A DNA stretch of 64,000 nucleotides from contig JBPCIO010000141.1 of assembly GCA_051006215.1 (NCBI GenBank), forward strand, positions 50,455 through 114,454. The letters are read 5' to 3'. Below are positions 29,611 through 49,626 of this stretch, piece by piece; position 1 is the stretch's first letter; each line of letters starts with the position of its first letter. The notes beneath the pieces were generated by a model that saw nothing but the letters and a program-made list of their open reading frames with translations, made no database searches and was not told where the DNA came from. Made by a program: the position numbers and the translations under genes. Source of the stretch: Chloroflexota bacterium (GTDB lineage: Bacteria > Chloroflexota > UBA6077 > CF-72).

Positions 29611-31179
29611 ATGAGCCGCCTCACCTCAGTGGTGCGGGTTGGCCTGGGAATCCTCCGTCATCTCTGGCCGGCATATGTACTTGCCTCCATCCTGATCCTC
29701 TACGGTTTCGGGTGGGGGTTGCCAGACAACCAGTACCAGAACCTGTCGTTCCACGCCGACGAGAACGCGATCGTTGGCGGCATCCGAGGCATGCAGTTCC
29801 CCAGGCTGTACCCGGGTTTCTTCGCCTGGGGCACAGCAGTCTTCTATCAGGTCTGGGCCATCCAGGGCATAGTTACCCTCCACCACCTCGTTCAGCTCCC
29901 GGGCGACGCGTTGTACCTCATCGGTCGAGCCACCGTCTACGTCTATGCGCTGGGAACGCTCACGTTGACGTTCGTCCTCGGCCGCAGATTGTTTGGGGAC
30001 GCGACCGGAAGAATGGCCGCAACCACGCTTGCGGTAATGCCAGGCTTCGTACAGAGTAGCCACTACTTCAAAACGGACGTACCGACGACGTTTTGGCTTG
30101 TGGCTGCGCTGCTGGCCGCCTACCAGACGCTGACGTCACGCCGAGCGCTGTACGTCGGACTTCTAGGGCTCCTGCTGGGGTATGCAGCGTCGACGAAATA
30201 TACGAGCATCGTCGTCTTCCCCGTGGGTCTCGCGGCGATCTGGATGGCGCGCCCGCTTGCCCTCAGTTTTCCGCGTGCGGTGCTGCTCTACCTGGCTGCT
30301 GTTGGCGTGGGATTCCTGGTTGGCACGCCCTACGCGGTGCTGCGTCCGCAGGAGATTATAAACGCCGCTCTGGATCACGCAGACCTGAGTGCGACCGTGG
30401 CGAATTCGGCGTCGCCGATCGGCGCGCCGGCGTGGTTGGACTACATCATCAGGGTCCTGCCACTCTCAGCCACGTTGACTCTTGCGATGCTTGCCGCAGC
30501 TGGTCTGTTGTGGTCGCTGCTGAGGTTCGACCGCCGGCTGCTGCTGGTGTGGGCCTTCGTCATTTGTTACTTCGGCTACCTTTCCGTCGACAACTATCGG
30601 ATGGTCCGTTACACCGTTCCGTTGTTGCCCTTCGTTGCGCTGTTCATTGCCTACCTGGGAAGCTGCCTGAACAGAGCCAAATTGACTCGCGTCCTGGGCT
30701 CGATCGGTGGCATTGCCGTCATCGGCTATGCCTTTCTGTTTTCGTTTTCGTACGTGCAGGTAATGGCTGAGGTCGATCCGCGCATCCAAGCTAGCCAGTG
30801 GATTGCCACCCACATCCCCACAACCGAGCCGGTGCTTGTCGAAGACACGTCGCCGACTGACAGTCCGCGTTTCGATACCTTCGGGTACACCTCGATTCAG
30901 GTCGATTACCGCGCGGACAGAGTGCGGCACGCCACTGGCTCGTCGTACCTCCTGGTGTCGGAGTATGCCACCCGCCCATTCGGCCGCGTTACCACTGCGA
31001 CAGACGCCGAAGAGCAGGCGTTCTGGAGTCTTGTCGCCACCGACTTTGTGGAAGTGGCTCGCTTTGAAAACTCCCAGAGGCTGCTCTGGTTGGACAGCAA
31101 AAAGGACCCGGCCTCGATCACTCACGACTGGCTCCAGCCCAACCCGCGAATCACACTGTATCAGCGCGTTGGCGGCTGA
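29611..31179 (+). CDS. GT-C superfamily membrane glycosyltransferase (ArnT/PMT-like, polyprenol-phosphate-sugar dependent)
   Basis: N-terminal multi-TM region with ArnT/PMT_2-like loop motifs (DENAIVGG..., KYTSIVVFP) and a C-terminal soluble domain. ATG 29611 is preferred over the ORF-track start 29497. Confidence 0.6.
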   Translation: MSRLTSVVRVGLGILRHLWPAYVLASILILYGFGWGLPDNQYQNLSFHADENAIVGGIRGMQFPRLYPGFFAWGTAVFYQVWAIQGIVTLHHLVQLPGDALYLIGRATVYVYALGTLTLTFVLGRRLFGDATGRMAATTLAVMPGFVQSSHYFKTDVPTTFWLVAALLAAYQTLTSRRALYVGLLGLLLGYAASTKYTSIVVFPVGLAAIWMARPLALSFPRAVLLYLAAVGVGFLVGTPYAVLRPQEIINAALDHADLSATVANSASPIGAPAWLDYIIRVLPLSATLTLAMLAAAGLLWSLLRFDRRLLLVWAFVICYFGYLSVDNYRMVRYTVPLLPFVALFIAYLGSCLNRAKLTRVLGSIGGIAVIGYAFLFSFSYVQVMAEVDPRIQASQWIATHIPTTEPVLVEDTSPTDSPRFDTFGYTSIQVDYRADRVRHATGSSYLLVSEYATRPFGRVTTATDAEEQAFWSLVATDFVEVARFENSQRLLWLDSKKDPASITHDWLQPNPRITLYQRVGG

Positions 31180-31211
31180 TACGGCTGTGTCTCAGGTGCT
31201 GATTTGAGCCC

Positions 31212-32012
31212 TCAGGCCACGCGACCTGGAGCGGCGACGAAGTCGTAGTATTCGTCTACTGCAGAATGCGTCCCGCGCTCGAATATGGCGAAGTCGCCCA
31301 GGCGCATCTTCTGGAGTCGGAACTTGACGGACGTCATCAGCACGCCCAGGCCATACGTCAGGCTGCGTCGGAAATTGATCGAAGACGCTTCAGCGAAGTA
31401 GCTGGTGGGGCACGAGATCTCGCCAATGCTGTACCCGAAATACGTGACCTGAGCCAGCATCTGATTGTCGAAGACAAAGTCGTCCGAGTTCTCTTCGAGA
31501 GGCAGCGTCTCCAGCACCTCACGCCGAAAGGCTCGATAACCGGTGTGATACTCCGACAGCTTCTGGCCAAGCAGGACATTCTGGATCGCTGTTAGTACAC
31601 GATTCGAAACATATTTGTAACGCGGCATTCCGCCCCTGAGAGCGCCCCCGCCCAGAATGCGAGAGCCCAGCACCACGTCGTAGCCGCCATACGCGATCAT
31701 CCCGACCATGGGCACAACCAGCCGCGGCGAGTACTGATAATCGGGATGTAGCATCACCACCACGTCCGCGCCTCGGCGCAGTGCCTCGCGGTAGCAGGTC
31801 TTCTGATTGCGGCCATAGCCCAGGTTTTGCTTGTGGTGGAACGTGGTCAGGCCAAGGTCCCGGGCCATGTGCACCGTCCCATCCGAGCTGTAGTCGTCCA
31901 CAAGGAGCACCTCGTCGACGATCTCGGAGGGGACTTCACTGACAGTGCGCTGCAATGTCTTGGCGGCATTGTAGGCCGGCATGACGACGACGATCTTTTT
32001 CCCGTTAAGCAC
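31212..32012 (-). CDS. GT2 polyprenol-phosphate sugar synthase (DPM1/ArnC-like)
   Basis: [14 protein letters not shown]...[11 protein letters not shown]. Size and motifs match dolichol-phosphate-mannose synthase-like enzymes. GTG start with a GGAGGG SD. Confidence 0.8.
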
Positions 32013-32178: not shown

Positions 32179-33993
32179 ATGGCCTACTGTGCTCGTCAGA
32201 TGTCCCACACAGGGTCGGCGCTCGTGGACCAACTGGCCGCGGCGGGCCGCCAGAACCCCACACTGCCGACCATCCGCAGCGTCGCAGATGCTCCTTTCGA
32301 TTGGTGCCGACGCAACGTCACGGCTGCATGGCTGATGGTCGCCGTAGTCCTCGGCCTGCTGCAGGCGGCGTACTTCCGCGACTTCATCAATCCCGACGGC
32401 ATTGCGTACCTCGACATGGGCGACGCCTATCTGCGGGGTGATTGGCTGACCGCCATCCGCGGCCACTGGAGTCCTCTGTATGCATGGCTGATCGCCGCGG
32501 TGGTCCGAGTCCTCCAGCCACCGCCCAGCCTCGAATTCCCGCTCGTCCACGTGGTAAACGCAGGTATCTACCTGGTTGCCCTGGGGACCTTCACGTTCCT
32601 GCTGCGTCAGATCGAAGCCACGCTCAGCACTCCTGCTCTCACGAGCACCGCCGCGCAGGCGACCCGCTTGCCGGCTTGGGTCTGGAAGTCTCTGGGTTAT
32701 GCGGTCTTCCTGTGGTGCACACTGCGATACGGTCTGCTGGAACTGGTGACACCGGACCTTCTGGTGTCGGCGCTGGTCTACGCAATTGGAGGGGTTGTGT
32801 TGCGGGTGCGGCGAAGGTCCGGATGGCAGTCATCGGTGCTTCTGGGCGCGTTGCTCGGGCTCGGGTACCTTGCCAAGACCCCCATGTTGCTGCTGGCGCC
32901 TGTATTCGTGGCCGCCAGCGTTTTGCTCATTCCGGGGCGTGCCAAGCGGCTCGTACACGCAGGTCTCACGCTGTCGGTACTGGCCCTGGTAGCAATCCCA
33001 TTCGTGCTAGTGCTGTCGCTTGCCAAGGGCAGGCTGACGGCTGGCGACAGCGCGATGCTGAACTACCTCTGGCTCGTCGACGGAGTGACGCCCTACCTTC
33101 ACTGGCAAGGAGGCCCCGCAGGGTCAGGTCAGCCCGTGCACCGGGACCAGGTTCTGTTGGAGCAACCAGCCGTCTACGCCTTCGACAGCCCGTTCTGGGT
33201 CACCTATTCGGCCTGGTACGCGCCTGATTACTGGTACGAGGGCGGCACACCTCACTTCGTTCTCAGCGGGCAAGTCCGAGCGATTCTTGGCGGACTGACG
33301 GTGTACGAGAGCATGGCGAAGCAGCTTGCTCTGCCGTTGGTGGGGACTGCCGTGCTGGTGTTGATGCGGCCACGGGGTTGGAGCTCAGGATTTGCACCAG
33401 CGTTGACCTTGATTGCTCCATCGATTACCGCACTCTGCATGTATTCGATCGTGATTGTGGAGGAGCGCTACGTGGGGCCCTTCGTCGTCCTGTTGTTTGT
33501 CGCGCTACTCGGTTTGATGATCCAACTGCCGTTATCCAAGTGGAGTCGCACCGTCGTCACCGGCGTAGCGGCCGTGATGCTGGTGTCGCTGATGCTCCCA
33601 GCGGGTAAGGCTGCATCCGAACAAGGGAGCTCCGTTAGCACGGACGTTACTCGTGACCACCTCCTTGCGCCAGACGAGCAAGCGCAAGTCGCTATGGGCC
33701 TCCGAGCGGCTGGTCTTCAGCCAGGTGACCCGGTGGCTAGCGGGGGTCGCGCTATCGACGACGCCTGGGCACGACTGGCTCGCGTCAGAATCGTGGCCGA
33801 AGTAGGCGACCGGGAGGGCGCGACCATGCTTGCCACGGATGCGGACGCACGCGCACGGGTGCAGGCGGCGCTTCTGCAAACCCATGCCGCGGCAATCGTA
33901 GCCCGCGACTGGCCAGGGCTCACCGGCGACCCAGGCTGGGTTGGTATAGGCGGCACGAGCTACTTCTATTACCTCATGCCCAGTCGGTCGTAA
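32179..33993 (+). CDS. GT-C-like multi-pass membrane glycosyltransferase (putative)
   Basis: About 12 TM helices with periplasmic loops. It is divergent from the DPM1-like gene. The start is uncertain (ATG 32179 or 32203); the ORF-track TTG 32101 is less likely. Confidence 0.55.
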   Translation: MAYCARQMSHTGSALVDQLAAAGRQNPTLPTIRSVADAPFDWCRRNVTAAWLMVAVVLGLLQAAYFRDFINPDGIAYLDMGDAYLRGDWLTAIRGHWSPLYAWLIAAVVRVLQPPPSLEFPLVHVVNAGIYLVALGTFTFLLRQIEATLSTPALTSTAAQATRLPAWVWKSLGYAVFLWCTLRYGLLELVTPDLLVSALVYAIGGVVLRVRRRSGWQSSVLLGALLGLGYLAKTPMLLLAPVFVAASVLLIPGRAKRLVHAGLTLSVLALVAIPFVLVLSLAKGRLTAGDSAMLNYLWLVDGVTPYLHWQGGPAGSGQPVHRDQVLLEQPAVYAFDSPFWVTYSAWYAPDYWYEGGTPHFVLSGQVRAILGGLTVYESMAKQLALPLVGTAVLVLMRPRGWSSGFAPALTLIAPSITALCMYSIVIVEERYVGPFVVLLFVALLGLMIQLPLSKWSRTVVTGVAAVMLVSLMLPAGKAASEQGSSVSTDVTRDHLLAPDEQAQVAMGLRAAGLQPGDPVASGGRAIDDAWARLARVRIVAEVGDREGATMLATDADARARVQAALLQTHAAAIVARDWPGLTGDPGWVGIGGTSYFYYLMPSRS

Positions 33994-34337: not shown

Positions 34338-35090
34338 GTGGTCTGGGACAAGGGCTGGTGGCAGGTGCGGAGTGGCAGCCCAGCGCAGCGCCATCGTCTA
34401 GGCTGGCGCCTCGTCTGGCATCACCTCGGCCTGGCCTGCGTGAGTGTGGTACTCGGCGCCGCTATCTATGCCGCCTTGCCGGGTCCGGACGAACACTTCC
34501 GCCTCAGCATGGCAACGGCCTACGTGGGGCTGGCGTTTCTCGCGGTCACGTTGCTGATCGGCCCGTTGAAAGTGTTGCGTCGCCAACGCGGGGCCCTTTC
34601 GGACGATCTGCGGCGAGATGTCGGTCTCTGGACTGCTCTTCTGGGTGGGCTACACGTTATCGTCGGCATCCAGGTCCATATGGGGTCGCCCTGGCTGTAT
34701 TTCTTCTATGGCGCCGGTCAGCGGCCAGCCTTCTGGCCGCTGCCAGTCCGCATCGATGTGTTTGGGCTCGCCAACGACACTGGATTGGCGGCAACGCTCA
34801 TTCTCGGTGTGCTGCTGCTGGCGTCGAACGACGTCTCTATGCGCACGCTCGGCAATCGTTGGTGGAAACGAGTGCAGCAGCTGAATTACGGGCTGCTGGC
34901 TTTAGTCGTGCTGCACGGGATTGTGTACCAGCGCATCGAGGGACGCGACCCGGGCTGGGTGCTCCTATTCTGGGCAGCCTGGCTCGTAGCCGCCGGACTC
35001 CAGTTGGTAGGTTTCCGAATTCGCAGTTCTCAAAAGCGCGGGCGCGGCTCGACTCTTGCCGCAGCTGATCTTGCGGAGTCGAGGCGGTGA
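34338..35090 (+). CDS. Ferric-reductase-like transmembrane protein (MsrQ/YedZ-like heme-binding membrane subunit, putative)
   Basis: About 6 TM helices with conserved His residues inside helices (GLHVIVGIQVH, LALVVLHGIVYQ). The size of about 250 aa is typical for the family. Confidence 0.4.
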   Translation: MVWDKGWWQVRSGSPAQRHRLGWRLVWHHLGLACVSVVLGAAIYAALPGPDEHFRLSMATAYVGLAFLAVTLLIGPLKVLRRQRGALSDDLRRDVGLWTALLGGLHVIVGIQVHMGSPWLYFFYGAGQRPAFWPLPVRIDVFGLANDTGLAATLILGVLLLASNDVSMRTLGNRWWKRVQQLNYGLLALVVLHGIVYQRIEGRDPGWVLLFWAAWLVAAGLQLVGFRIRSSQKRGRGSTLAAADLAESRR

Positions 35091-35092
35091 GT

Positions 35093-36202
35093 ATGCGTGT
35101 GGCACTGGTCGGGTTGGGAAACGCCGGATTCACTCTCCATCTGCCGGCGCTAGCAGGCCTGCCATCGGCGAATGTGGTGGGTGCTTGCGATCTGGATGCC
35201 GTGCGGCGGGCCCGCGCCGAAGCAAGTTTCCGGGTACCGAGCTTTTCGGACTTCGACGAGATGGTGGCGCGCACCCAGCCGGACGTGGTCGTGATCGGCA
35301 CCCCGCCAGCCACACATGCGGACTACTGCCTGCGCGCTCTTGCCGCGGGCAGTCACGTGATCTGCGAAAAGCCGTTCGCCTCGAGTGTTGAGGAAGCCGA
35401 CCGGATCATCGGCGTCGCGAAAAACGTTGGTCGTCGCGTAGCGCTCAACCATGAATTTCGCCAGATGCCCATCTTCCGAGCCATCATCGAGGCTACCAGT
35501 GGCTCGCCGGATCGCGAGGTGGTCTTCGCCCAGGTGTGGCAACTCATGGATCTGCCGCCGTGGGCGGAGCCAGGCTGGCGCGGGGCCATGCTGCAACGTA
35601 CCCTGTACGAGGCGGGTGTTCACCTCGTGGACTTCCTCCTGGCACTCTTCCGTGAGAAGCCAGTCGCAGTTTCGGCAACCGTCTCCACCTGCGGAGTTCG
35701 GGAGGGCGAGAGTGATGCCGTCGCGGTGGCGACGTTCGAGTTCTCGCGCGGCCGACTTGCGCAGCTCGTGCAGAATCGACTGTGTAAGGGCGAGACGCAA
35801 TACTTCGAGGTACGCGCGGACACCCCCAGCGGCTCACTCAGAGCCTCGTTCGGCGGCCGCGCCCGGCTAACAGCCGGACTGTTCCGCAGTACGCGTCCAC
35901 ACGTCCGGTTCGAATTCGGGAAAGCCGGCATCGCCTGGCGCGAGGTCGGAACGCGGCGCAGATTGCTAGCGCGTAACCCGAACGATCCGGGCATGCTGGC
36001 CACGCGCGCGGTGTTTGAGCGGAGTTTAGCCGCCTTTGCCTCAGGTGGTGCACCGCCTGCAAGCGCCGATGATGGCCGAGCGGTGCTCGAAGTCATCGCG
36101 GCGTGTTACCTGAGCGCCACGACCGGGCGTCGGATCCGGCTGGATGACGCCGAGGCAGCCGAGCTCGCGTCGATGCGCATGGGCGCCCAACAGGGCGGGT
36201 GA
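35093..36202 (+). CDS. Gfo/Idh/MocA family NAD(P)-dependent oxidoreductase
   Basis: N-terminal Rossmann motif VALVGLGNAG and an EKP motif (VICEKPFA). Confidence 0.8.
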   Translation: MRVALVGLGNAGFTLHLPALAGLPSANVVGACDLDAVRRARAEASFRVPSFSDFDEMVARTQPDVVVIGTPPATHADYCLRALAAGSHVICEKPFASSVEEADRIIGVAKNVGRRVALNHEFRQMPIFRAIIEATSGSPDREVVFAQVWQLMDLPPWAEPGWRGAMLQRTLYEAGVHLVDFLLALFREKPVAVSATVSTCGVREGESDAVAVATFEFSRGRLAQLVQNRLCKGETQYFEVRADTPSGSLRASFGGRARLTAGLFRSTRPHVRFEFGKAGIAWREVGTRRRLLARNPNDPGMLATRAVFERSLAAFASGGAPPASADDGRAVLEVIAACYLSATTGRRIRLDDAEAAELASMRMGAQQGG

Positions 36203-37194
36203 CTGATCGCTGGCCGGTCCGCGCCGGGGTGGTGGGCGCCGGCCGCATGGGCAGATGGCACGCAGCAGCGATCTCGCGGGCTGGCGGGATCGTGGCGGCG
36301 GTGGTCGATCACAGCCTGGCTGCCGCACAAGCACTGGCGGCGACCTATCCAGGTGCTCGGGCGGGAACCGAGCTAGCGGAGATACAGCGTGCTGCCGCGT
36401 TGGACGTCGTGCACCTGTGTACGCCGCTGGACACGCACGCCCGGCTGGTTCGCCAGGCCCTGGAGGCCGGCCTGCACGTGCTGGTTGAGAAACCGTTGGC
36501 AGAGACTGCCGCTGTCACAGCGGAGCTCCTGTCTCTAGCATCTGAGCACGCTCGAATGCTGTGCCCTACCCACCAGTTCCTGTATCAGCCTGGCGTGCAA
36601 CGTGGTCTTTCGGCTCTCGGTCGCCTCGGTCCGTTGCTCCACGTGGACAGCGTGGCGTGCTCCGCGGGAGCTGTCGGCCCGTTCGCAAGTACCCCGGACA
36701 GCTTGATCGGTGAGATTCTGCCGCACCCGCTGGCCTTGCTGACGCGCATGTTCCCCGGCGCGCTGACCAAGGTCGACTGGCACATCGACCACCCACGCCT
36801 TGGGGAGATGCGCGCTGCCGGCTGCATCGGCTCCATGTCGGTAGCCGTGCTCGTGTCAGCTCACGGCCGGCCGACGGCGAACAGCATGCGGGTGATCGGT
36901 GAGCGCGGAACCTGGGAAGCGGACCTCTTTCACGGCTACGCGATACTCGAAGGCGGCACCGTCTCGCGTGGGTACAAGATCGCACGGCCGTTCATCCGAT
37001 CCGGAAAGACATTCGTCGCGGCGGGCCACAACCTGGCGTGGCGAGCCGTTCGACGGGAGTCAGCCTATCCTGGCTTGCGGGCGTTGATCGATCGCTTCTA
37101 CCGCGCTGTGCGAGACAAATCAGCCACGCCCATCACACCAACCGAGATCCTCGACGTCGCGATCGCGCGAGATGCGCTCATGGCGGGGTTGTGA
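36199..37194 (+). CDS. Gfo/Idh/MocA family oxidoreductase (second copy)
   Basis: AGVVGAGRMG and VLVEKPLA motifs. The GTG start overlaps the upstream stop (GTGA). Confidence 0.75.
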   Translation: MTDRWPVRAGVVGAGRMGRWHAAAISRAGGIVAAVVDHSLAAAQALAATYPGARAGTELAEIQRAAALDVVHLCTPLDTHARLVRQALEAGLHVLVEKPLAETAAVTAELLSLASEHARMLCPTHQFLYQPGVQRGLSALGRLGPLLHVDSVACSAGAVGPFASTPDSLIGEILPHPLALLTRMFPGALTKVDWHIDHPRLGEMRAAGCIGSMSVAVLVSAHGRPTANSMRVIGERGTWEADLFHGYAILEGGTVSRGYKIARPFIRSGKTFVAAGHNLAWRAVRRESAYPGLRALIDRFYRAVRDKSATPITPTEILDVAIARDALMAGL

Positions 37195-37228: not shown

Positions 37229-37708
37229 CTACGGAATGGGTTCGAAGTGCTCGATGTTGCGGCGCAGGCCCTCGTATATCAGAACGGGGATCCAGAGGAT
37301 CAGCATAGCCAACACTGCTTCGACCACCACCGCGTATCCGGGACCCACCAGAATCTGGCCCTGGCCGATGTTCAGCCGATGCGCCACCGCGACTACCAGC
37401 ACCAGCAGTAGCGAGACAGCAACATAGATCGGCACCGGCCTTCGGGTGCGATCTGCCAGGACGCGGAAGCCAGCCAACCAGAACGTACCGAACAGCAGCG
37501 AAAGCGGCAGCAGGATTGCCGCCTGTACGACCGGTGAGACCGTGAAGTACGTCCCCGTCCACCAGCCAGCCCACAGCGCCAGAACGTATACGCCAGCGAC
37601 CAAACCGGTCAGGACGGCCGCCGTGCCAAGGACAAGTAATCGATCGGCATGGCCGCGCTGACGCGCCCAGATGACGAGGCCACCCACGATCAAGACGGTG
37701 GCCAGCAT
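37229..37708 (-). CDS. Small 4-TM membrane protein of unknown function
   Basis: Strong GGAGAGGGGGAG SD upstream of ATG 37708. About 160 aa, four hydrophobic helices. The ORF-track start 37966 is an over-extension. It is divergent from the His-Asp repeat protein. Confidence 0.5.
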   Translation of the reverse strand: MLATVLIVGGLVIWARQRGHADRLLVLGTAAVLTGLVAGVYVLALWAGWWTGTYFTVSPVVQAAILLPLSLLFGTFWLAGFRVLADRTRRPVPIYVAVSLLLVLVVAVAHRLNIGQGQILVGPGYAVVVEAVLAMLILWIPVLIYEGLRRNIEHFEPIP

Positions 37709-38031
37709 GACTGCTGCTCCCCCCTCTCCGGATCGGAGAAACGCTATGTACCCCGTGCTTGCATGGTCCACCTGAGTCAAGCACCTAATCCTACGCGGTC
37801 GCGGCGCTGCGTCATCACGATATGCTCGGGCTGGCTCGGCCTCGCCCTCGTCACCGGAGCGGCACAACCCATCTCCAACTGGTAACGGCGAGGCCGGCCA
37901 GGACGCCGAGCAACCAACATTCGACCGTAGGGTTGACGGAAGCTCTATGAGCGTGGCGCCAAACACAGGGGGTGTGTGCGATTATTTGAGTACGCAAGCT
38001 TGCTCACGCAGCCTTGCCTATAGGAGGAACG

Positions 38032-40116: not shown

Positions 40117-40209
40117 GTGGCGTAAACCTGCGTTGCTCGCCGCGCCCATCAGACTCCCATCACCAAACGTGACGCTCAATTGTCAGTACTCATGCGGGAA
40201 AGAAGTGAG

Positions 40210-41664
40210 ATGGTAGAAACTGGTCAGCGCACAGCAGTCATCATGGGAGCCGGTCCAGCGGGGCTCGCAACAGGCCTGGCTCTGGCACGCGCTGGCTGGT
40301 TTGTTCACGTCGTTGAGCAAGCCTCGGTCGTCGGCGGCCTGGCGCGAACGGTGGAGCAGGACGGCTTCCGTTTCGATATCGGCGGACATCGCTGGTTCAC
40401 CAAGAAAGATGTTCTCAACCACTTCCTCATCGACCTGCTCGGCGACGAGATGGTGATGGTCGACCGCATCAGTCGAATTTTCTTCGACGGCACGTATGTG
40501 GACTACCCGCTCCGCGCGGCCAACGTACTGTCCCACATTGGACCGATGACCAGCGCGCGTGCCATCGGTGATTTCGTCGTGTCGAAGGCTACCCAGCGGT
40601 TGTCCAACAAGCCCGTGGTGTCCATGGAGGACGCCTACGTGGGCCAGTTCGGACGCACGCTGTACGAGCTGTTTTTTCGCAACTACTCCGAAAAGGTATG
40701 GGGCGAGTCATGCTCCGAGCTCTCGGGTGACTGGGTCACCCAGCGCAGCAAGGGTCTGTCGCTATTTACCGCGGTCAAGGACGCCTTCAAACGCAGCGAC
40801 GGCGAGGTCGAGAGCCTAGTCGACAGGTTCATGTACCCGGCTCTGGGTTTCGGTCGCATATCCGAGCGCATGGTTGAGGACATCGAAGCCACTGGCGGGC
40901 GCGTGGATCTCGGCCAACGCGTCATCCGCGTCGACCACGATCACGGCCAGGTGAGCGGGATTACCGTCAGCGACGGTGCGCGTGAGCGCCAGATCAACGG
41001 CGATGTCTTCGTCTCCTCTATTCCGATGACCGAGCTGGCCCAGGTCCTGGCGCCGGCTGCCACATCCGGCGTCCTCGAAGCCAGCCGCAGCCTGACCTAT
41101 CGCGACCTGATCACGGTCAATCTGTTGCTGGACCGTCCCCAGGTAACCAACGACACGTGGGTCTACGTCCACGATCCGAGCGTATCGTTCGCCCGCCTCC
41201 ACGAGCCACGCAACTGGAGCAGCCAAATGGCGCCTGAGGGTAAGACATCGCTCGTGCTCGAGCTCTTCTGCGAAGCTGGCGACCAGCTCTGGCAGCGCAC
41301 CGACGATGATCTGGTCGAGCTCGTTTCAGGAGATCTGGCTGACAAGCTCCACTTCATCGAGCGGAACGAGGTAATGGGTGGATTCGCCATCCGCAGCCGC
41401 GACGCCTACCCTCGGTATGGCCTTGAGTACCGCGACGCGGTCGCTCAGATCAAGAGCTGCCTGGGCAGTTTCGCGAATCTGAACATCGTTGGGCGGGGTG
41501 GCACCTTCCGCTACAACAACACCGACCACGCAATCGAGACCGGCTTGTTGGCCGCTCGGCACATCCTGGGCGAGGACGTGGATGTCGATTCCGTCAACAG
41601 CGAACAGGAGTACCTCGAGGAGCGACGGGTTCCAGCGCGGCTCTCGCGGGCTGCCGTTGCCTGA
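40210..41664 (+). CDS. FAD/NAD(P)-binding oxidoreductase (amine-oxidase / UDP-galactopyranose-mutase-like superfamily)
   Basis: N-terminal dinucleotide-binding motif VIMGAGPAGLATGLALA...VVEQASVVGG. The start is uncertain (ATG 40210 or 40192; the ORF-track TTG is at 40180). Confidence 0.65.
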   Translation: MVETGQRTAVIMGAGPAGLATGLALARAGWFVHVVEQASVVGGLARTVEQDGFRFDIGGHRWFTKKDVLNHFLIDLLGDEMVMVDRISRIFFDGTYVDYPLRAANVLSHIGPMTSARAIGDFVVSKATQRLSNKPVVSMEDAYVGQFGRTLYELFFRNYSEKVWGESCSELSGDWVTQRSKGLSLFTAVKDAFKRSDGEVESLVDRFMYPALGFGRISERMVEDIEATGGRVDLGQRVIRVDHDHGQVSGITVSDGARERQINGDVFVSSIPMTELAQVLAPAATSGVLEASRSLTYRDLITVNLLLDRPQVTNDTWVYVHDPSVSFARLHEPRNWSSQMAPEGKTSLVLELFCEAGDQLWQRTDDDLVELVSGDLADKLHFIERNEVMGGFAIRSRDAYPRYGLEYRDAVAQIKSCLGSFANLNIVGRGGTFRYNNTDHAIETGLLAARHILGEDVDVDSVNSEQEYLEERRVPARLSRAAVA

Positions 41665-41692
41665 GCTCGGGCCCCATTCGCCGGGGCCAACG

Positions 41693-42751
41693 GTGGCGCC
41701 AGCGATCAGCGTGGTCGTTCCCGTCTACAACGGCGGCGCCGCCTTCCAGCGCTGCCTGGCGGCTCTGGCCGGCAGCCGCGACATAGCCTGGGAGCTGGTC
41801 GTGGTCGACGATGGTTCGACTGACGATTCCGCCGAGACCGCCCAACTGACGGGTGCCCGCGTCCTGACCACGGACCGCGCGCGCAGCGGACCCGGACCCG
41901 CCCGCAACCTGGGTGCCCGCGTCGCTCGCGCTCCGATCCTGTGTTTCATCGATGCTGACGTCCTTGCTCGCTCGGACACGCTGGCAAACTTTGCGGCGCT
42001 CTTCGCCGCCGACCCCGGCCTCACCGCCGCATTCGGTTCGTATGACCCGCAACCCGCCCACCCTGGTCTTCTCTCCCAGTATCGGAACTTGCTCCATCAC
42101 TTCGTCCACCAGACGGGCCAGGAAGAGGCCTCAACCTTCTGGAGCGGCTGTGGCGCTATCCGCCGCCAGGCGTTCCTGGACCTGAACGGGTTCGACGCCG
42201 CGTATACGCGCCCGAGCATCGAGGACATCGAGCTCGGCTATCGCGTCCTGGCCGCTGGTGGTCGCATCCGACTGGCCAAGCACATTCAGGTAAAACATTT
42301 GAAGCACTGGACGTTCTGGAACATCCTTCAGACGGATATCCGTGACCGGGCCCTGCCCTGGACGCAGTTGATCGTGCGAACGGGACAGCTTCCGAATGAC
42401 CTGAACCTTCAGACCGCCAGTCGCGTCAGCGCGGTATGCGTGTATGGGCTGTTGGTCAGCGCGGGTCTCAGCATCTGGCAGCCTCTGGCGCTTCTGGCCA
42501 CAATCCCGCTGGTGGCGCTGCTGCTGGTCTGTAACCAGCACCTGTACTCGTTCTTGCTGGGCCAGCGTGGGTTCCGTTTCCTGCTGTGTGTGCTGCCCAT
42601 GCACTGGCTGTACTACGGCTACTCGGCCCTGGTCTTCAGCGCTGGCATGGCCTTCGAAAAAGTGCGCGCCCGGCGACGGGCCGCGACCGCGCCAGTCCTT
42701 GTGCGTTCGAACGGCGGCGTCGCCTCGTCTGACGTCGAGCTCGCGCTCTGA
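41693..42751 (+). CDS. Glycosyltransferase family 2
   Basis: ISVVVPVYNGGAAFQRCLAAL...LVVVDDGSTDDS...CFIDADV. C-terminal TM helices. The start is uncertain (GTG 41693 or TTG 41657); the ORF-track start 41489 lies inside the upstream gene. Confidence 0.75.
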   Translation: MAPAISVVVPVYNGGAAFQRCLAALAGSRDIAWELVVVDDGSTDDSAETAQLTGARVLTTDRARSGPGPARNLGARVARAPILCFIDADVLARSDTLANFAALFAADPGLTAAFGSYDPQPAHPGLLSQYRNLLHHFVHQTGQEEASTFWSGCGAIRRQAFLDLNGFDAAYTRPSIEDIELGYRVLAAGGRIRLAKHIQVKHLKHWTFWNILQTDIRDRALPWTQLIVRTGQLPNDLNLQTASRVSAVCVYGLLVSAGLSIWQPLALLATIPLVALLLVCNQHLYSFLLGQRGFRFLLCVLPMHWLYYGYSALVFSAGMAFEKVRARRRAATAPVLVRSNGGVASSDVELAL

Positions 42752-42769
42752 GCAGGCATAATCCCGTAC

Positions 42770-43675
42770 GTGGGAGTGGGGCCGCCTGGGCGCCGAATTT
42801 CGATCCTCATCGCCGCCCGAGACACCCGCGCCGATACACGCGAGTGTCTCGCGGCCCTCGCCCCCCAGGTCGACTCGCAAACAGAAGTGCTGGTGGTGTG
42901 TGGCTCGGAGGATGGGACCGCCGAGATGGTGAATCGCGACTTTGGCTGGGCACGCTCACTCCAATATCCGGTGGGTACCGGCTTCGGCGAGTTACGCGCG
43001 CATGGGCTGGCCAGCGCCACGGGTGATCCGATTGTCTTCCTGGATGTGTACTGTCGGGTGCGTCCAGGCTGGCTCGCCCGCTGGCGCGAGGAGCCCTGGG
43101 AACGCTATGCAGCGGTGGGCGGCCTGGTCGAACCGGCGCCCCGCCCCAGTCTGGCGGACTGGGCCGCCTTCTTGAGCGAGTATGGTCCGTACCTCCCCCC
43201 CCTGCCGGCAGGCGAGACAGACCACCTCCTTGGCAACAACGTCGGCTTTCGCCGCGCCGCGCTGGAGCGGGCTGGCTTGATCGGTGCGGCCGAGTTCTGG
43301 AAAACCTTCGCGCTCTGGGCACTGTCCGCGCAGGGTGAACACTGCTGGACGGACCCACGCCAGCTCGTGTCTCACGTCCGGTCCATTCAGCCGGGCGAGT
43401 TCAGCATTCACCGCTACTGGCACGGGCGATGTTTCGGCGCGACCCGAACCCTGAGGAGCAGGTGGCGAGTGCGTCTCGCGCGCGCTGCGAGCTGTCCCGC
43501 CGTGCCGTTGCTCCTGACCGCGCGACTGGTCCGCGACGTGCACCCCAATCGAGCCTATCGACGTGTCCTGTGGCGGAGCCTGCCTTTCGCGCTGCTCTAC
43601 CATGCCGCCTGGGCGCTGGGCGAGCTCGACGGCTACCTGCGCGGTGCGGGCGGCGCGTGTGCCCGCCTGGCATGA
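42770..43675 (+). CDS. GT2-like (GT-A fold) protein, single domain, paralogous to the two domains of the 44817 gene
   Basis: ISILIAARDTRADTRECLAALAP...VLVVCGSEDGT and LADWAAFLSEYGPYLPPLPAG are shared with both halves of 44817..46718. Confidence 0.55.
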   Translation: MGVGPPGRRISILIAARDTRADTRECLAALAPQVDSQTEVLVVCGSEDGTAEMVNRDFGWARSLQYPVGTGFGELRAHGLASATGDPIVFLDVYCRVRPGWLARWREEPWERYAAVGGLVEPAPRPSLADWAAFLSEYGPYLPPLPAGETDHLLGNNVGFRRAALERAGLIGAAEFWKTFALWALSAQGEHCWTDPRQLVSHVRSIQPGEFSIHRYWHGRCFGATRTLRSRWRVRLARAASCPAVPLLLTARLVRDVHPNRAYRRVLWRSLPFALLYHAAWALGELDGYLRGAGGACARLA

Positions 43676-44757
43676 CTGAGGAGCGTGTGAACGACCCGGA
43701 CGCTGGGTTGATCAGCTTCTGCTGTCCTCGCTGCAGCGGTCCGCTTGCGACGCGTTCCAGCGAATATCACTGTAGTGCCTGCAGCCACACCTACCCGGTC
43801 ATACTCGGAATTCCCGACTTCCGCGTTTTCCCGGATCCGTACATCGACTACGCAGATGACCGAGCCAAGGCCGGGCGCGTCCTGCACGGCATGGACAACG
43901 CCTCGTTTGCGGCGTTGGTGCGCCGCTACTGGGACCTCACCCCCGACGTTCCGCGCCACCTGGTCGACGGCTATGTCAGCCATGTCCTAATGGCCGGCGA
44001 GCGTGCCAGCTCGATTCTCGATGAGGCGCGACGTGCTGGGAATCGCATGGGCGCGCGGCCGGCCCTCGGAAGCGGTGCCATCCTCGAAATCGGATGCGGG
44101 ACAGGCGGCTTGTTGATCGCCGCCGCCCGCGAGTATCAGCAGGTTGTGGGGGTCGACATCGCCTTCCGCTGGATCGCGATCGCCACCCGCCGCGTGCAAG
44201 AGGCGGTCACCAACGGCCAGTTGACACCCGAGCAAGCTCGTCGCGTCCGACTCGTATGCGCCTGCGCGGAAAGCTTGCCTCTGCCGTCAGGCGCGTTCGA
44301 TCTGGTGGTGGGCGCTGGCGTTGTCGAGCACGCCAGCCGCCAGCCCGACCTGCTACGGCAGGCGCGTCGAGCGCTACGCCCTGGCGGACTACTCTTCCTC
44401 ACCACGGTCAACCGCCTGAGCCTGGCACCCGAGCCGCACGTCGGGGTCTGGGGTGTGGGTTTCCTACCCCGCCGCTTGATGGAACCCTACGTACGCCGGG
44501 TGCGAGGTGTTCCGTACCGCTATATTCGATTACACTCCGCCCTGGGTCTCGCTGGCCTCCTGCGTAGCGCTGGGTTCGCCCGCTGGGAGGTTCAGCCACC
44601 GCCAGTGGCGGACGGTGACATGCGCCGCTACTCTGCCGGCGTCCAGGCGTGCGGCCGGCTGTACAACCGGGTGCGGCAACTGCCTGGTCCTCGCCAGGTA
44701 CTCAGTTTGGTCGGTCCGCTGCTCCAGATCGCAGCCGTCCGTGGCAACGAACCGTAA
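43672..44757 (+). CDS. SAM-dependent methyltransferase with an N-terminal Cys4 zinc-ribbon (Trm112-like) segment
   Basis: CPRCSGPL...CSACSHTYP followed by methyltransferase motif I ILEIGCGTGGL. The ATG overlaps the upstream stop (ATGA). Confidence 0.75.
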   Translation: MTEERVNDPDAGLISFCCPRCSGPLATRSSEYHCSACSHTYPVILGIPDFRVFPDPYIDYADDRAKAGRVLHGMDNASFAALVRRYWDLTPDVPRHLVDGYVSHVLMAGERASSILDEARRAGNRMGARPALGSGAILEIGCGTGGLLIAAAREYQQVVGVDIAFRWIAIATRRVQEAVTNGQLTPEQARRVRLVCACAESLPLPSGAFDLVVGAGVVEHASRQPDLLRQARRALRPGGLLFLTTVNRLSLAPEPHVGVWGVGFLPRRLMEPYVRRVRGVPYRYIRLHSALGLAGLLRSAGFARWEVQPPPVADGDMRRYSAGVQACGRLYNRVRQLPGPRQVLSLVGPLLQIAAVRGNEP

Positions 44758-44760
44758 CGG

Positions 44761-44777
44761 CTAAACCACGTCTCAAC
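44761..44777 (+). promoter_or_regulatory. CTAAAC-N5-CTCAAC direct repeat (candidate operator)
   Basis: CTAAACcacgtCTCAACcgagcgttgacgg with 11-bp spacing, about 45 nt upstream of GTG 44817. Confidence 0.35.
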
Positions 44778-44816
44778 CGAGCGTTGACGGGTCGGTTGGC
44801 CGCCGCGGCCTAGGCT

Positions 44817-46718
44817 GTGCGCGTGTCAACTGTCCAGCGCGTCTCGGTTGTGGTCGCTTCGCAGAGCGCGCTCGCTCAAGTTGAGCGCTGCCTCGCCGCT
44901 CTGGAGGCCCAGCGCCAGCAGGGCATCGGCCAGATCATCCTGGTTGGCAATACCATCGAGGGGATTGGTGAGGCAGTTCGAGAGAGCTTTCCGTCAGTTG
45001 AAATCGTCGATCGCCCAAGCCATGTGCTGGTGCCCGAGTTGTGGGCCGAGGGTGTCGGACGCAGTCGGGAGGCAGTCATCGCGTTGACCACAGCTGACAT
45101 GCTGCCTGACCCTGGCTGGGTGGCGGCGATACTGAGGCAGTACGAGCGCGCGTCGTGGGCCGGCGTCGGCGGCGTCATTCTCCCGAGCCCTGGGCTTGGG
45201 TCGCTGGACGCGGCTGTGTACTGGTTGCGCTACCACCGTTTCGCCTCACGCCAGCCGGCCGGAGCTGTGCGCGATATCGCTGGCGACAACGGCAGCTATC
45301 GCCGCCAGGAGCTCATCCCATACCTCGAACGTATCGCCCGAGACGGTTTCTGGGAGTACGAGTTGAACCAGGATCTCGGGTCGGCTGGCAAACTGCTGTG
45401 CCTGGAACCGGATGCCGTCGTGCGCTACCAGGGTGGCGAGTCATTCGCTGTCTTCGCCCGCCAGCGGCTTACCCACGGCCGTCGCTTTGGCGCCGAACGT
45501 TTTGCACGAGCCACGGGTCTGCGCCGTTGGCTGTTGCTGGCGGCATGGCCACTCACACCAGCCGCCATGCTGATGCGCATCTCGCGTGGCGTTGTAGCGG
45601 CTGGAGCTGTTGGCGGGTTGGGCCGAGCCGTGCCGCCACTGCTTGGTCTGGTTGCCTGCTGGAGCACAGGCGAGCTACTCGGGTATCTCAGCGGAGCGTC
45701 GCATGCGCTCCGCAGTTCCGCGCGCGCCAATCCCTTGGCTAGCCTCACGCCCACTCCCACTCGCACTCTGGCGCGTCCACCAGCGGTCGAGCCTACGTCC
45801 GGAGCCGCGGCCGCGACGGACGATCATCCGACTCTGTCGGTCGTCATCGCCTCGGTCAACGGGCCCGACTATCTCGACGCTTGCCTGGCGGCGCTCTCCG
45901 CCCAGCACGGGACGGTTCTCAGCGAAGTGGTGGTTGCCGACAGTTATGGGCCAGCCACCGCGAAGCTCGTGGCCGAGAAGTACCCGCACGTGCGCCTGTA
46001 CTCCTTCGCCGAGCGGTTGACGATTCCGCAGCTACGCGCCGCGGCGATAGCCCAGAGCCGAGGCGATCTCATCGTCATGACCGAAGATCACTGCGTGCCC
46101 GCCCAGGACTGGTACGAGCGTATCGTGGCGACGCACCAGCAGCAGCCCTATCTGGCTATCGGCGGGGCTATCGAAAACGCGGCCACCGCCAGGCTGGTGG
46201 ATTGGGCCGCGTTCCTGTGCGAATACAGCGCCTTCGTGCGGCCCCTCGCCCCAGGCGTCGCCCACGATATTCCCGGGCCTAACGTGGCGTACAAGCGGGC
46301 TGCGCTCGAGCACATTCAGGATCTACTTGACGATGGGCGATGGGAAAACTTCCTGCATGCTCGCCTCGAGGAGCGGGGCTTCGAGCTGTATCAAGACCCC
46401 AGCGTAGTGGTCTATCACCGCAAGTTCTTCTCGCTCGGCGAGTTCCTCTCGCAGCGGTATCACTACGGCCGCGGATTCGCTGGCATGCGCGTGCAACGCG
46501 CGCCACTCTGGCGCAAAGCGGTCTTCGCGGCTGGCTCGCCCGTTCTTCCACCGGTCATCCTATGGCGCCTGGGCTCGCGCCTGTTCGGTCGACGGCGACA
46601 TCGGCTGATCTTCCTGTGCGCGTTGCCTCAGCTCGCGCTGTTTACGCTCAGCTGGAGTCTGGGCGAGCTCGTCGGCTACGTTCTGGGTCCAGGTGACAGC
46701 CTGGCCAAGGTCGAGTGA
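44817..46718 (+). CDS. Didomain GT2-like protein (two tandem GT-A-like domains)
   Basis: Two internal repeats of the domain seen in 42770..43675 (VSVVVASQSALAQVERCLAALEA... and LSVVIASVNGPDYLDACLAALSA...), joined by a Pro/Thr-rich linker. Hydrophobic segments follow each domain. Confidence 0.6.
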   Translation: MRVSTVQRVSVVVASQSALAQVERCLAALEAQRQQGIGQIILVGNTIEGIGEAVRESFPSVEIVDRPSHVLVPELWAEGVGRSREAVIALTTADMLPDPGWVAAILRQYERASWAGVGGVILPSPGLGSLDAAVYWLRYHRFASRQPAGAVRDIAGDNGSYRRQELIPYLERIARDGFWEYELNQDLGSAGKLLCLEPDAVVRYQGGESFAVFARQRLTHGRRFGAERFARATGLRRWLLLAAWPLTPAAMLMRISRGVVAAGAVGGLGRAVPPLLGLVACWSTGELLGYLSGASHALRSSARANPLASLTPTPTRTLARPPAVEPTSGAAAATDDHPTLSVVIASVNGPDYLDACLAALSAQHGTVLSEVVVADSYGPATAKLVAEKYPHVRLYSFAERLTIPQLRAAAIAQSRGDLIVMTEDHCVPAQDWYERIVATHQQQPYLAIGGAIENAATARLVDWAAFLCEYSAFVRPLAPGVAHDIPGPNVAYKRAALEHIQDLLDDGRWENFLHARLEERGFELYQDPSVVVYHRKFFSLGEFLSQRYHYGRGFAGMRVQRAPLWRKAVFAAGSPVLPPVILWRLGSRLFGRRRHRLIFLCALPQLALFTLSWSLGELVGYVLGPGDSLAKVE

Positions 46719-46750
46719 GAACACGCGCCGCCTCGGCCCACCACAGGCCG

Positions 46751-47968
46751 ATGCGCATCGGCATCGACCTGGCGTGTTGGGCGAACAATCGCGGCTATGG
46801 GCGGTACACCCGCAACCTGATCCGCGCCCTGCTAGCCACCGACAGGAGCCATGACTATCTTGGCTTCGGCGATCACGCGACATTGCAGGCCAACACCTTC
46901 CCGACCGGATTGGAGCTCGTCGCCGTGGCGCTGTCGGAAGCCCCCGCGCAGGCAGCGGCCTCGGATGGTCGGCGTCGGGCGATCGATCTGTGGCGCATGG
47001 CTCGGGCCGTGCAGCGTGCCAAGCTAGACGTGGTGTTCTTCCCTTCCAGCTATACCTATTTCCCGGTGCTTGGTCACGCACGCGCGGTCGTCGTGGTGCA
47101 TGACGCGATTGCCGAACGCATGCCTCAGCTCATCTTTCCCAATCGTGCGGGGCGGCTGGCCTGGACACTCAAGACTCGGCTTGCTTGCTGGCAGGCCCAA
47201 CGCGTGGTCACCGTCTCGCAGGCGGCCGCGGGTGCCATCGAGCAGCACCTGCCGATCGCGCACAGCCGCATACGCATTATCCCCGAAGCGGCCGATCCGA
47301 TCTTCGGGCCGCCCGCCCAAGACGTGGTTGCTCGAACGCGGTTGGCCGCGTTGCGTAAACGCTTCGGGATTCCGCCTGAAGCGCAAATCGTCCTGTACGT
47401 GGGCGGATTCGGTCCCCACAAGAACGTGGGGACGTTGATCGAAGCATTTTCACGACTCGTCAGCAGCGTCGAGCTGCCACTCCACCTGGTACTGGTCGGG
47501 CAATCCGTGGGCGAGGTGTTCCATTCCGAAGTTGGCGCGCTGCAAGAGCAGCTCCGGCGCCAGAGCCTGGGGGATCGAGTCACCTTCACAGGCTTCGTGC
47601 CCGACTCTGAGCTGGTCGACTGGTATCACGCTGCCGCGTGCCTCGTGCTGCCGTCTCGCGACGAAGGGTTTGGGCTGCCGGTCGCCGAGGCTATGGCATG
47701 CGGCACCCCGGTTGTCGCCAGCCGTGTGGGTGCGCTGATGGAGATGGTCGGCGATGACGCGGGGTTGCTGTTCGACCCCGACCGGCCCGAACAACTGGTC
47801 GCGGCGCTGATGCGACTCGTCAGCGGCGACGAGGCTGTCCAACGTCAGCTCAGTGTTGCCGGGCTGAGGCGCGCGGCCACATTTAGCTGGGAGAAGGCCG
47901 CTCTGGCGCTGCGCGCCATTTTCGACGAGCTCGATCCACACCAGAGTCTCGCCTTGGAAACCTCTTGA
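46751..47968 (+). CDS. Glycosyltransferase family 4
   Basis: MRIGIDLACW start and C-terminal GT4 motifs (LVLPSRDEGFGLPVAEAMACGTPVVASRVGA). ATG 46751 is preferred over GTG 46715. Confidence 0.8.
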   Translation: MRIGIDLACWANNRGYGRYTRNLIRALLATDRSHDYLGFGDHATLQANTFPTGLELVAVALSEAPAQAAASDGRRRAIDLWRMARAVQRAKLDVVFFPSSYTYFPVLGHARAVVVVHDAIAERMPQLIFPNRAGRLAWTLKTRLACWQAQRVVTVSQAAAGAIEQHLPIAHSRIRIIPEAADPIFGPPAQDVVARTRLAALRKRFGIPPEAQIVLYVGGFGPHKNVGTLIEAFSRLVSSVELPLHLVLVGQSVGEVFHSEVGALQEQLRRQSLGDRVTFTGFVPDSELVDWYHAAACLVLPSRDEGFGLPVAEAMACGTPVVASRVGALMEMVGDDAGLLFDPDRPEQLVAALMRLVSGDEAVQRQLSVAGLRRAATFSWEKAALALRAIFDELDPHQSLALETS

Positions 47969-49626
47969 TGCGCCGCGAGCTGGGCTTCGCGCTGTTCTGC
48001 CTCCTGATCTATGTCATCAGTGGTACAGGTGTCGTCACGCATGTAGACGGGGTGGTGTACTACGCGCTTGCCCGGCGCATGGTTGACAATGCCACGTTTT
48101 CGCTCGATCGCGGCGATCCTGCCCTGATCACAAATCCAGAGATTATCACTGGCCCCGACGGCATGGGTTACGCACACTTCAATCCGGGTCTACCGATGCT
48201 CATCGCACCTCTTTACGAGATCGGCAAAGTCCTGAGTCCGTGGCTGCCACACGTGTCCGAGTTCACTGCCGCCGACTTTCTGGTGAGCATGACCAATGCC
48301 GTCGTTACAACCGGCGCCGTCTTGCTGGTCGTGCTCCTGGTGCGCGAGTTGGGCTACCCGTTGCGGGCCGCGCTGCTCGCTGGCGCCGCGTTGGGCTTCG
48401 GTAGCATGACCTGGAATTACGCCACCACGCTGTTCACCGAGCCAGCTACGGGTGTGTGCGTCTTGTTGAGCGTGCTGCTACTGGTCCGGTCGCGCCGCAA
48501 CCCTCGACCGGCGCAACTCATCTTCGCGGCCGGCCTGGCCGCGGGCGGGGCGCTGCTGATGCGCGTGAGCGGCCTCGTCTTCATGCCGGGCTTGGCCGTG
48601 TACCTGGTGCTGGCTCACCGCCGTCTTGGTTGGCGCCTGATCTGGCTGCTGGCTGCCTTCAGCCTCGGGTGCGCAGTGCTTGTCGCGGCCACCGGATGGT
48701 ACAACTTCGCTCGTTTCGGCAATGTGCTCGAAACGGGTTACACCATTACCACCAATACCGCCCACAGCAGTGACCGCAACGAGCTGGCCGATGGTCTGGC
48801 CACGCGGGTGGGCGGGCATGGCCTGGACCAGATCCTGTACGCGCTCGTAGCTTTGCTGATCAGCCCTGGTCGAGGGGTGTTGCTGTTCGCGCCCGTGCTG
48901 ATCCTGGGGCTGCTCGGATTACCTGCCCTCGCACGCCGCTGGCCATTGGAGGCGGCCTTGTTGGTAGTGTTGAGCGGCTCACTGCTGGTGGCGGAGGCAA
49001 TTCTGCCATTCGACTACTGGTTCGGCGGATGGAGCTACGGGCCGAGATATCTGGTGCCGATGCTCGGGCTGGGGGCCGTGTCCGCTGCCGCCTGGTTCGC
49101 CCGGGTGAGCCGAGGACCCGCGATTGGATTGCTAGGGGGTGGCGTGCTGGCGCTCATGGTCGCGCTGCAACTGCCGACCGTTTTGGCCAACGTGAACACC
49201 ACCTATTATCGTGCTCAGGTGGCGCGCGGTACGCCTCTGGACCACGTCTACCTGGTCGAATCATGGCAGGCATCGACGTATGTCGGAGCGTGGCTCGAGT
49301 CGGCGCTGGTGACCCAGCGCACGCTGCGCGGCCAGCCGGTGCCCCGCGGGCGTCTGGGTGATTTCCAGGATCCGTCCGCAGCGCTCGAGCAATCGGAGGT
49401 ATTGAATACCTTCCAGCCGTGGTGGCTACGACTGGCGCAAACTGGCCGGCTCGTGGGTGCTGCTCGGCTCGGCATGTTCGGCCTGGTTGGGATGCTACTC
49501 GTCGCGGCCGCGCTCGCCTTGCGAGTGGCCACCGGTGCTTCACTTCTGAGACCCAGCCGTCGCTCCGATAGGCCCGCGACAATTGGTATCCATGTCGATC
49601 GACTGGAAGAGCGCGGTAGTGCTTGA
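47968..49626 (+). CDS. GT-C-like multi-pass membrane glycosyltransferase (putative)
   Basis: About 550 aa, 12 or more TM helices, with large loops containing DxD-like or acidic motifs. The ATG overlaps the upstream stop (TGATG). Confidence 0.5.
   Translation: MRRELGFALFCLLIYVISGTGVVTHVDGVVYYALARRMVDNATFSLDRGDPALITNPEIITGPDGMGYAHFNPGLPMLIAPLYEIGKVLSPWLPHVSEFTAADFLVSMTNAVVTTGAVLLVVLLVRELGYPLRAALLAGAALGFGSMTWNYATTLFTEPATGVCVLLSVLLLVRSRRNPRPAQLIFAAGLAAGGALLMRVSGLVFMPGLAVYLVLAHRRLGWRLIWLLAAFSLGCAVLVAATGWYNFARFGNVLETGYTITTNTAHSSDRNELADGLATRVGGHGLDQILYALVALLISPGRGVLLFAPVLILGLLGLPALARRWPLEAALLVVLSGSLLVAEAILPFDYWFGGWSYGPRYLVPMLGLGAVSAAAWFARVSRGPAIGLLGGGVLALMVALQLPTVLANVNTTYYRAQVARGTPLDHVYLVESWQASTYVGAWLESALVTQRTLRGQPVPRGRLGDFQDPSAALEQSEVLNTFQPWWLRLAQTGRLVGAARLGMFGLVGMLLVAAALALRVATGASLLRPSRRSDRPATIGIHVDRLEERGSA

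Follow-up and report, generated by a model that had tools for sequence, protein, structure and literature searches.

The 64-kb window analyzed here (the whole stretch of DNA under study, taken from a 142,513-bp contig of a Chloroflexota metagenome-assembled genome (MAG)) probably encodes an extracytoplasmic, lipid-donor-dependent glycosylation system that lies within a large cell-surface polysaccharide locus. The genes concerned encode four membrane proteins of the GT-C type of glycosyltransferases, designated A to D according to their order in the window, and a family 2 glycosyltransferase (GT2) located between A and B:

29611-31179, plus strand: GT-C A, 522 amino acids, ArnT/PMT_2-like (Pfam PMT_2, 38.9 bits vs. 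a gathering score of 26.1)
31212-32012, minus strand: soluble GT2, 266 amino acids, candidate polyprenyl-phosphate-sugar synthase (Pfam Glycos_transf_2)
32179-33993, plus strand: GT-C B, 604 amino acids (NCBI start 32200), from a family without a Pfam model
38825-40051, plus strand: GT-C C, 408 amino acids, GT87/DUF2029 (Pfam GT87, 28.3 bits vs. a gathering score of 25)
47968-49626, plus strand: GT-C D, 552 amino acids, ArnT-like fold in its predicted structure (a rare family with 14 homologues)

The best reading of these genes is an outer decoration of a cell-surface glycan in the style of the Gtr, Arn, and mycobacterial systems. The GT2, as a soluble or peripheral protein, would charge polyprenyl phosphate with a monosaccharide at the cytoplasmic face, a putative transporter would flip the lipid-sugar across the membrane, and GT-C enzymes on the outer face would decorate a glycan with side-chain or capping sugars; this glycan would be assembled by cytoplasmic GT2 and GT4 enzymes on a carrier primed by the transferase encoded at 8775-10403. 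A and C are most likely the enzymes fed by the GT2; D may use the same donor as A and C or another one, and B may be a housekeeping GT-C that happens to lie here. Donor sugar, acceptor, flipping step, and membrane topology are putative throughout this scheme. Three-component extracytoplasmic glycosylation is a well-described pathway (PMC11127046).

Open reading frames (ORFs) were identified by ORF finding combined with a codon-position G+C filter and were then scanned against Pfam and NCBIfam; the G+C content is ~63% across the window. All five genes named in an earlier reading of the region made from the letters alone (the sequence-only reading) are present with matching 3′ ends, and the shifts in the start positions relative to NCBI are small (32200, giving 597 amino acids, vs. 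32179 for B; 38825, giving 408 amino acids, vs. 38774 for C), with the NCBI call for D starting at 47968 (552 amino acids). Exact NCBI matches were found for B (ACR2IK_09835), D (ACR2IK_09900), and C (“glycosyltransferase 87 family protein”).

The sequence-only reading had assigned all four membrane proteins to the GT-C type and this assignment is supported: the fold of B and D, the profile of A, and, for C, Pfam only all point to GT-C, and the opposite outcome (non-GT-C folds for most of the four) therefore did not occur. All four proteins are polytopic with 7-13 hydrophobic segments in a crude hydropathy scan, and the helices mapped in the predicted structures of B and D are consistent with this. 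Every family displays a conserved acidic residue shortly after the first transmembrane (TM) segment, TM1, which is invariant in A (D50-E51, nucleotides 29758-29763, in the loop following TM1), B (D73, nucleotides 32395-32397), and C (D49, nucleotides 38969-38971) and nearly so in D (D27, nucleotides 48046-48048, in at least 90% of the sequences). In B the residue is part of a strongly conserved NPDGIxYLDMGDAY motif, and K187 and D311 are two further invariant residues in C. Arg residues lie ahead of TM1 in each of A, B, C, and D; by this positive-inside pattern the N-terminus would be inside the cell and the acidic loop would face outward. The predicted structures of B and D resemble solved GT-C enzymes, and on the basis of these models both proteins are like the ArnT/PMT/ALG/Aft/OST class and not like ligase or SEDS-type enzymes. 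This class uses lipid-phosphate-monosaccharide donors in every family except the oligosaccharyltransferases (PMC10920833). Extracytoplasmic glycosylation, as the sequence-only reading had proposed, is the chemistry expected of such enzymes. The features of family GT39 (PF02366, MIR, and PMT_4TMC) are present in none of A-D at E ≤ 0.01 in Pfam, and in A, B, and D the match is to the generic PMT_2 model (PF13231).

The individual families differ in how far their assignment reaches. The A family is large (5685 relatives at E ≤ 1e-3), and a profile based on 32 relatives matches ArnT (5ezm) at 1.1e-8 and, in addition, archaeal AglB, a PMT, and several STT3 proteins. ArnT is also the best solved match of D by fold, and the closest sequence relationship of D is to the ArnT-like A family (97.9% probability in hhalign). 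The alignment of B with A is weak (22.9% probability in hhalign), although the loop-1 and “GLxxxxK” segments do align, and the predicted structure of B has a C-terminal alpha/beta domain. For C, the match to PF09594 spans profile positions 2-223 of 237 and a precomputed PF09594 annotation is present in most of its 118 homologues. The B family has at least 228 members in the Chloroflexota, Acidobacteriota, Gemmatimonadota, and Methylomirabilales, and its close orthologues are stand-alone genes.

The GT2 gene converges on A across a gap of 32 bp and diverges from B across one of 166 bp. In the PDB, E ≤ 1e-3 is reached only by the Pyrococcus Dol-P-Man synthase (DPMS) 5mlz (1.3e-8) and by three ArnC sequences, which places the protein with the polyprenyl-phosphate-sugar synthase type that had been suggested for the gene beside A. 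A control GT2 from the same window (41489-42751) gave chondroitin synthase, GalT1, and other generic GT2 structures as first matches, with ArnC appearing only at ~2e-3. The GT2 family is extremely conserved and widespread, with at least 595 matches in GTDB species genomes; the best 80 of these are 62-72% identical and span the Acidobacteriota, the Planctomycetota, several proteobacterial classes, the Nitrospirota, the Gemmatimonadota, the Myxococcota, and others. An HPDYQY motif is invariant in 81 family members. None of the curated equivalog models covers the family.

Gene order links the GT2 to two of the four GT-Cs. Among 16 related metagenome contigs with at least 1 kb of downstream sequence, several of which are near-duplicates, the GT2 adjoins A in 12, usually in the convergent orientation seen in the window (the relatives are 41-82% identical to A), and this recurring adjacency speaks for a functional connection of the two. 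A link between the GT2 and C is supported by synteny in two lineages of related loci (designated below by L numbers): the order is A, C (48% identity), and GT2 on one strand in L097/L098, and L008 starts with the C-terminus of the GT2 followed by a small membrane protein with five TM segments and a C orthologue with 71% identity. A BLASTP comparison of A-D with the neighborhoods of the best 80 GT2 orthologues gave almost no matches, and a criterion based on length and TM count (large polytopic proteins, defined as at least 380 amino acids and at least six TM segments) was therefore adopted. A large polytopic protein is located within two genes of the GT2 orthologue in 44 of the 80 genomes, belonging to many phyla, and the frequency of such proteins is 19-28% at positions ±1 and +2 and 8% at position -2 compared with 2-6% at positions ±6 to 8. 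Together with the conserved pairing with A and C, this enrichment lends indirect support to the predicted function of the GT2 in polyprenyl-phosphate sugar transfer. The GT-C nature of the large polytopic neighbors is unproven, since Pfam recognizes few of them (one cluster as DUF6798 and another by a TPR tail, with no match for others). The anchor-less HPD-type GT2 family might conceivably be a general donor synthase for many unannotated GT-C families, for example, the B family. A separate observation concerns a delta-proteobacterial MAG (L079), where a 609-amino-acid protein (13931-15760, plus strand) adjoins the GT2 orthologue; its polytopic N-terminal half and C-terminal TPR array, of which Pfam detects only the TPRs, recall the architecture of the eukaryotic TMTC O-mannosyltransferases.

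The five genes are embedded in a glycan locus of ~51 kb (roughly 1.5 to 52.8 kb of the window, based on Pfam and NCBIfam) that holds about a dozen GT2 and GT4 genes. The other features on which the argument depends are:

7305-10403, minus strand: EpsI-like DUF3485 protein, exosortase, and exopolysaccharide (EPS) priming phosphoglycosyltransferase, ~20-30 kb upstream of the GT-C genes (Pfam/NCBIfam)
8775-10403, minus strand: the EPS priming phosphoglycosyltransferase of this block (TIGR03025, 415 bits vs. a cut-off of 295)
24461-26005, plus strand: protein of 514 amino acids with 11 TM segments (no Pfam or NCBIfam match, even at lenient thresholds)
34338-35090, plus strand: ferric-reductase/MsrQ-like haem membrane protein (Pfam/NCBIfam)
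35087-36202 and 36199-37194, plus strand: two GFO/IDH/MocA oxidoreductases (Pfam/NCBIfam)
37229-37777, minus strand: small membrane protein of ~182 amino acids with five hydrophobic segments (no Pfam or NCBIfam match)
38032-38757, plus strand: secreted protein of eight-residue His/Asp/Thr/Pro repeats (HD-repeat protein) with a signal peptide, a PEP-CTERM-like tail, and an AGGAGG ribosome-binding site
40180-47968, plus strand: upstream part of the D cassette, encoding an FAD amine-oxidase-like PRK07208 protein, two GT2 proteins, a methyltransferase, a fused double GT2, and a GT4 (Pfam/NCBIfam)
49583-52800, plus strand: downstream part of the D cassette, encoding a GT4, a polysaccharide deacetylase, and a DegT aminotransferase (Pfam)

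The exosortase that the sequence-only reading had placed in the surrounding locus is present (PF09721, 4.5e-46, with a score above the 8TM_EpsH cut-off). The minus-strand block also includes a chain-length-determinant-like protein and its ATPase, a WecG-family transferase, and GT2 and GT4 genes, and the plus-strand run comprises GT4 and GT2 genes, an asparagine-synthase-like amidotransferase (nearest to the XrtA-system type), a GT10-like protein, the 11-TM protein, acyltransferases, and methyltransferases. The suggestion that assembly follows a Wzy pathway was not confirmed as no Wzy-type domain was recognized anywhere in the 64-kb window. No earlier account of such a locus type in the Chloroflexota was found in the literature.

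Several results weigh against a lipid-donor-dependent system. The top NCBIfam matches of the GT2 are AglJ, PpgS, Dol-P-hexose transferase, and also ArnC, but all are far below the respective cut-off (for the PpgS model 1.1e-17 and 64 bits vs. a cut-off of 370). The protein has no predicted TM segment and thus lacks the anchors of GtrB, ArnC, and the archaeal DPMS, and the DxD metal-binding motif is missing, with HPD aligned to the DAD of DPMS (the second Asp and the Gln of HPDYQY are retained). C is the weakest of the four assignments, a marginal one that relies on a single Pfam match 3 bits over the threshold and on the family annotation: a profile of 38 family members retrieved no PDB sequence at E ≤ 1, PimE included (present in the searched library, where it was seen as 9dm5), and hhalign comparisons of C with the A and D families were not significant. 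Orthologues of B with 55% identity have transporter and catabolic genes as neighbors, and neither glycan genes nor a GT2 are located nearby. Finally, no GtrA, SMR, or MATE match was found, and the 5-TM and 11-TM proteins, which match no Pfam or NCBIfam family, are flippase candidates on position alone.

The components and the logic of the proposed system are already known, and C is already annotated. Gtr-type glucosylation of the O-antigen (flippase GtrA, undecaprenyl-phosphate-glucose synthase GtrB, and GT-C GtrC; PMC11127046) resembles the window in a DPMS-like GT2 encoded beside GT-Cs in a surface-polysaccharide locus and in post-assembly glycosylation on the outer face. The window differs in a GT2 without TM helices that carries HPD in place of DxD, in the lack of a recognizable GtrA, SMR, or MATE flippase, in up to four GT-Cs versus one, and in its host, a Chloroflexota bacterium. 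In mycobacteria, PpgS (Rv3631) pairs with Rv3779, and Ppm1 with GT87 mannosyltransferases such as PimE and Rv2181. These systems share with the window a short polyprenyl-phosphate-sugar synthase that feeds GT-Cs, including GT87 members, and the action of several GT-Cs on one envelope glycan, but the similarity is remote (64 bits vs. 370 for PpgS, and a C profile that does not reach PimE) and the glycan of the window is a different one, primed by a WbaP/EPS-type phosphoglycosyltransferase in an exosortase locus. In the modification of lipid A with aminoarabinose (GT2 ArnC and GT83 ArnT), the few solved relatives of the GT2 include ArnC, and ArnT is the best solved match of A (profile) and D (fold); however, the proteins of the window reach no ArnT or ArnC equivalog model, sugar-nucleotide genes are not arranged as in an arn operon, and the host has no known lipid A. 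The GT39 enzymes (eukaryotic Pmt1-4 and actinobacterial Pmt) share only the generic PMT_2 segment, and the genes in the window showed no conserved association with a protein substrate.

What is new is limited in scope: predicted structures give B and D, two families of “hypothetical proteins,” an annotation at the fold level; gene neighborhoods indicate that an extremely conserved GT2 family lacking a membrane anchor goes together with GT-C genes; and an EPS island of the exosortase type in a Chloroflexota bacterium holds up to four GT-Cs. In uncultured soil Chloroflexota, surface-glycan loci would join assembly in the cytoplasm to several GT-C steps on the outer face, as is the case in actinobacteria and enterobacteria, and flagging the anchor-less GT2 family as a probable lipid-sugar synthase helps with annotating such genes and with choosing targets for glycan chemistry. 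The current understanding of these pathways is not changed by the finding.

An outer decoration by GT-Cs has to be weighed against three other explanations. D especially, and possibly B, might act on polyprenyl-diphosphate-linked oligosaccharides as the polymerase, ligase, or oligosaccharyltransferase of the locus, and the lack of a recognized Wzy-type domain in the window as well as the lack of a DPMS-type GT2 within the D cassette would fit such a role. However, the WWD motif, a hallmark of oligosaccharyltransferases, is found in none of the four GT-Cs, a large C-terminal periplasmic domain is lacking in D, and the nearest relatives of D in sequence are found in the ArnT-like A family, which makes this explanation unlikely.

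The clustering could also be largely incidental, with the four GT-Cs acting on unrelated envelope targets, be they lipids, wall polymers, or further glycans, within a glycan island of mosaic make-up. The context of the B orthologues among transport and catabolic genes is in agreement with a mosaic, as is the variable gene order around the GT2, which is not the same in the window, in L008, and in L097/L098. D comes with a conserved cassette of its own: the upstream genes of the cassette recur at 62-90% identity in L003, L008, and L089, and the GT4 and deacetylase genes are located 3′ of the D orthologue in L003/L004 as they are in the window and upstream of it in L005. In L003/L004 a copper ATPase and RHS genes border the cassette, and the cassette and the C neighborhood occur apart from each other in other contigs. 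On the other hand, the GT2 stays linked to A and to C across lineages, the gene module AsnB, GT10, ..., A, GT2 is found again in relatives, and glycan clusters with multiple GT-Cs recur, as in L005, where a 46%-identical relative of D belongs to a cluster with three PMT_2 proteins in 22 kb and with dTDP-rhamnose genes. A purely incidental cluster is accordingly considered improbable. Within the upstream part of the cassette, the 633-amino-acid protein encoded at 44817-46718 (plus strand) is a fusion of two GT2-like halves that are encoded in L008 (5324-7274) by two separate 321-amino-acid genes with 63% and 81% identity.

The third explanation concerns the exosortase cargo, for which the sequence-only reading had considered an O-mannosylation-like modification. 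One or more of the GT-Cs would O-glycosylate the Thr/Pro-rich HD-repeat protein on the outer face, making the cargo a glycoprotein; C is the most plausible enzyme because its gene starts 67 bp downstream of the HD-repeat gene on the same strand. The protein carries a signal peptide, is rich in Thr and Pro, and closes with PEL, a hydrophobic stretch, and RAGRPK, the one sequence in the window that fits a hand-made pattern for PEP-CTERM-like tails; an exosortase is encoded in the same locus. The tail has no match to the NCBIfam PEP-CTERM models at E ≤ 0.1, however, and in none of the three relative lineages examined does the HD-repeat gene adjoin C; at this position it occurs in the source genome alone. 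In L089 (74% identity) and L008 (71%) the gene before C is the divergent 5-TM gene, and in L006/L007 (60%) it is a GT4 gene, with neither room for nor a trace of an HD-repeat gene. Within flanks of up to 10 kb, the related loci contain no exosortase, EpsI, priming transferase, HD-repeat homologue, or PEP-CTERM-like tail; as the exosortase is located 20-30 kb away in the window, this result counts against a link to the HD-repeat protein and not against a link to the exosortase. Furthermore, the GT39 features are missing from all four GT-Cs, the B orthologues reside in nonglycan contexts, the D cassette occurs elsewhere with no exosortase nearby, and the characterized GT87 enzymes PimE and Rv2181 work on lipoglycans and not on proteins. 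The proposed O-mannosylation-like modification of the exosortase cargo is therefore not supported: the one adjacency in its favor is not conserved, and glycosylation of the cargo is a rather remote prospect. The most specific version, in which C is fed by the HPD-motif lipid-sugar synthase and O-glycosylates the HD-repeat protein before or during exosortase processing, is very unlikely, and if true it would be the first link of GT-C protein glycosylation to PEP-CTERM/exosortase sorting, in a Chloroflexota bacterium. The repeat units of the protein (HDATPDPM/HDVNPGAT type) correspond to 24-nucleotide tandem DNA repeats, and its composition suggests metal binding.

With regard to the outer decoration of a surface glycan, the window contains additional candidate components. 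Orthologues of the 5-TM protein (72-81% identity) adjoin the GT87 gene in an upstream, divergent position in L008 (226-753, minus strand) and L089 (2-304, minus strand). A test of the protein as a GtrA-type flippase gave no match in Pfam or NCBIfam, GtrA included; it could be a flippase or an accessory subunit. The 11-TM protein could be the flippase or polymerase of the locus. It is kept 3′ of the GT10-like gene in L006/L007 (47% identity) and L097/L098 (34%). The haem protein and GFO/IDH/MocA genes are probable sugar-tailoring genes: in L006, a 60%-identical relative, two GFO genes, the GT87 gene, and a Ferric_reduct gene are located together. The PRK07208 protein (40180-41664) travels with this group and the GT87 gene in the 60%-identical relative. 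A redox tailoring of the sugar or the lipid-linked sugar, loosely like that by DprE1/DprE2, is pure speculation.

Two further ORFs were recorded. At the edge of the locus, 52897-55239 (minus strand) encodes a secreted 780-amino-acid protein with Pro/Thr-rich linkers and two C-terminal MG2/BsuPI-type Ig-like domains, the N-terminal half of which (~450 residues) has no family match. Within the plus-strand run, the Acyl_transf_3 ORF 26390-27337 aligns with profile positions 112-324 of 326 only and is either an apparent N-terminally truncated paralogue of the complete acyltransferase encoded at 28269-29516 or an ORF with a mis-set start.

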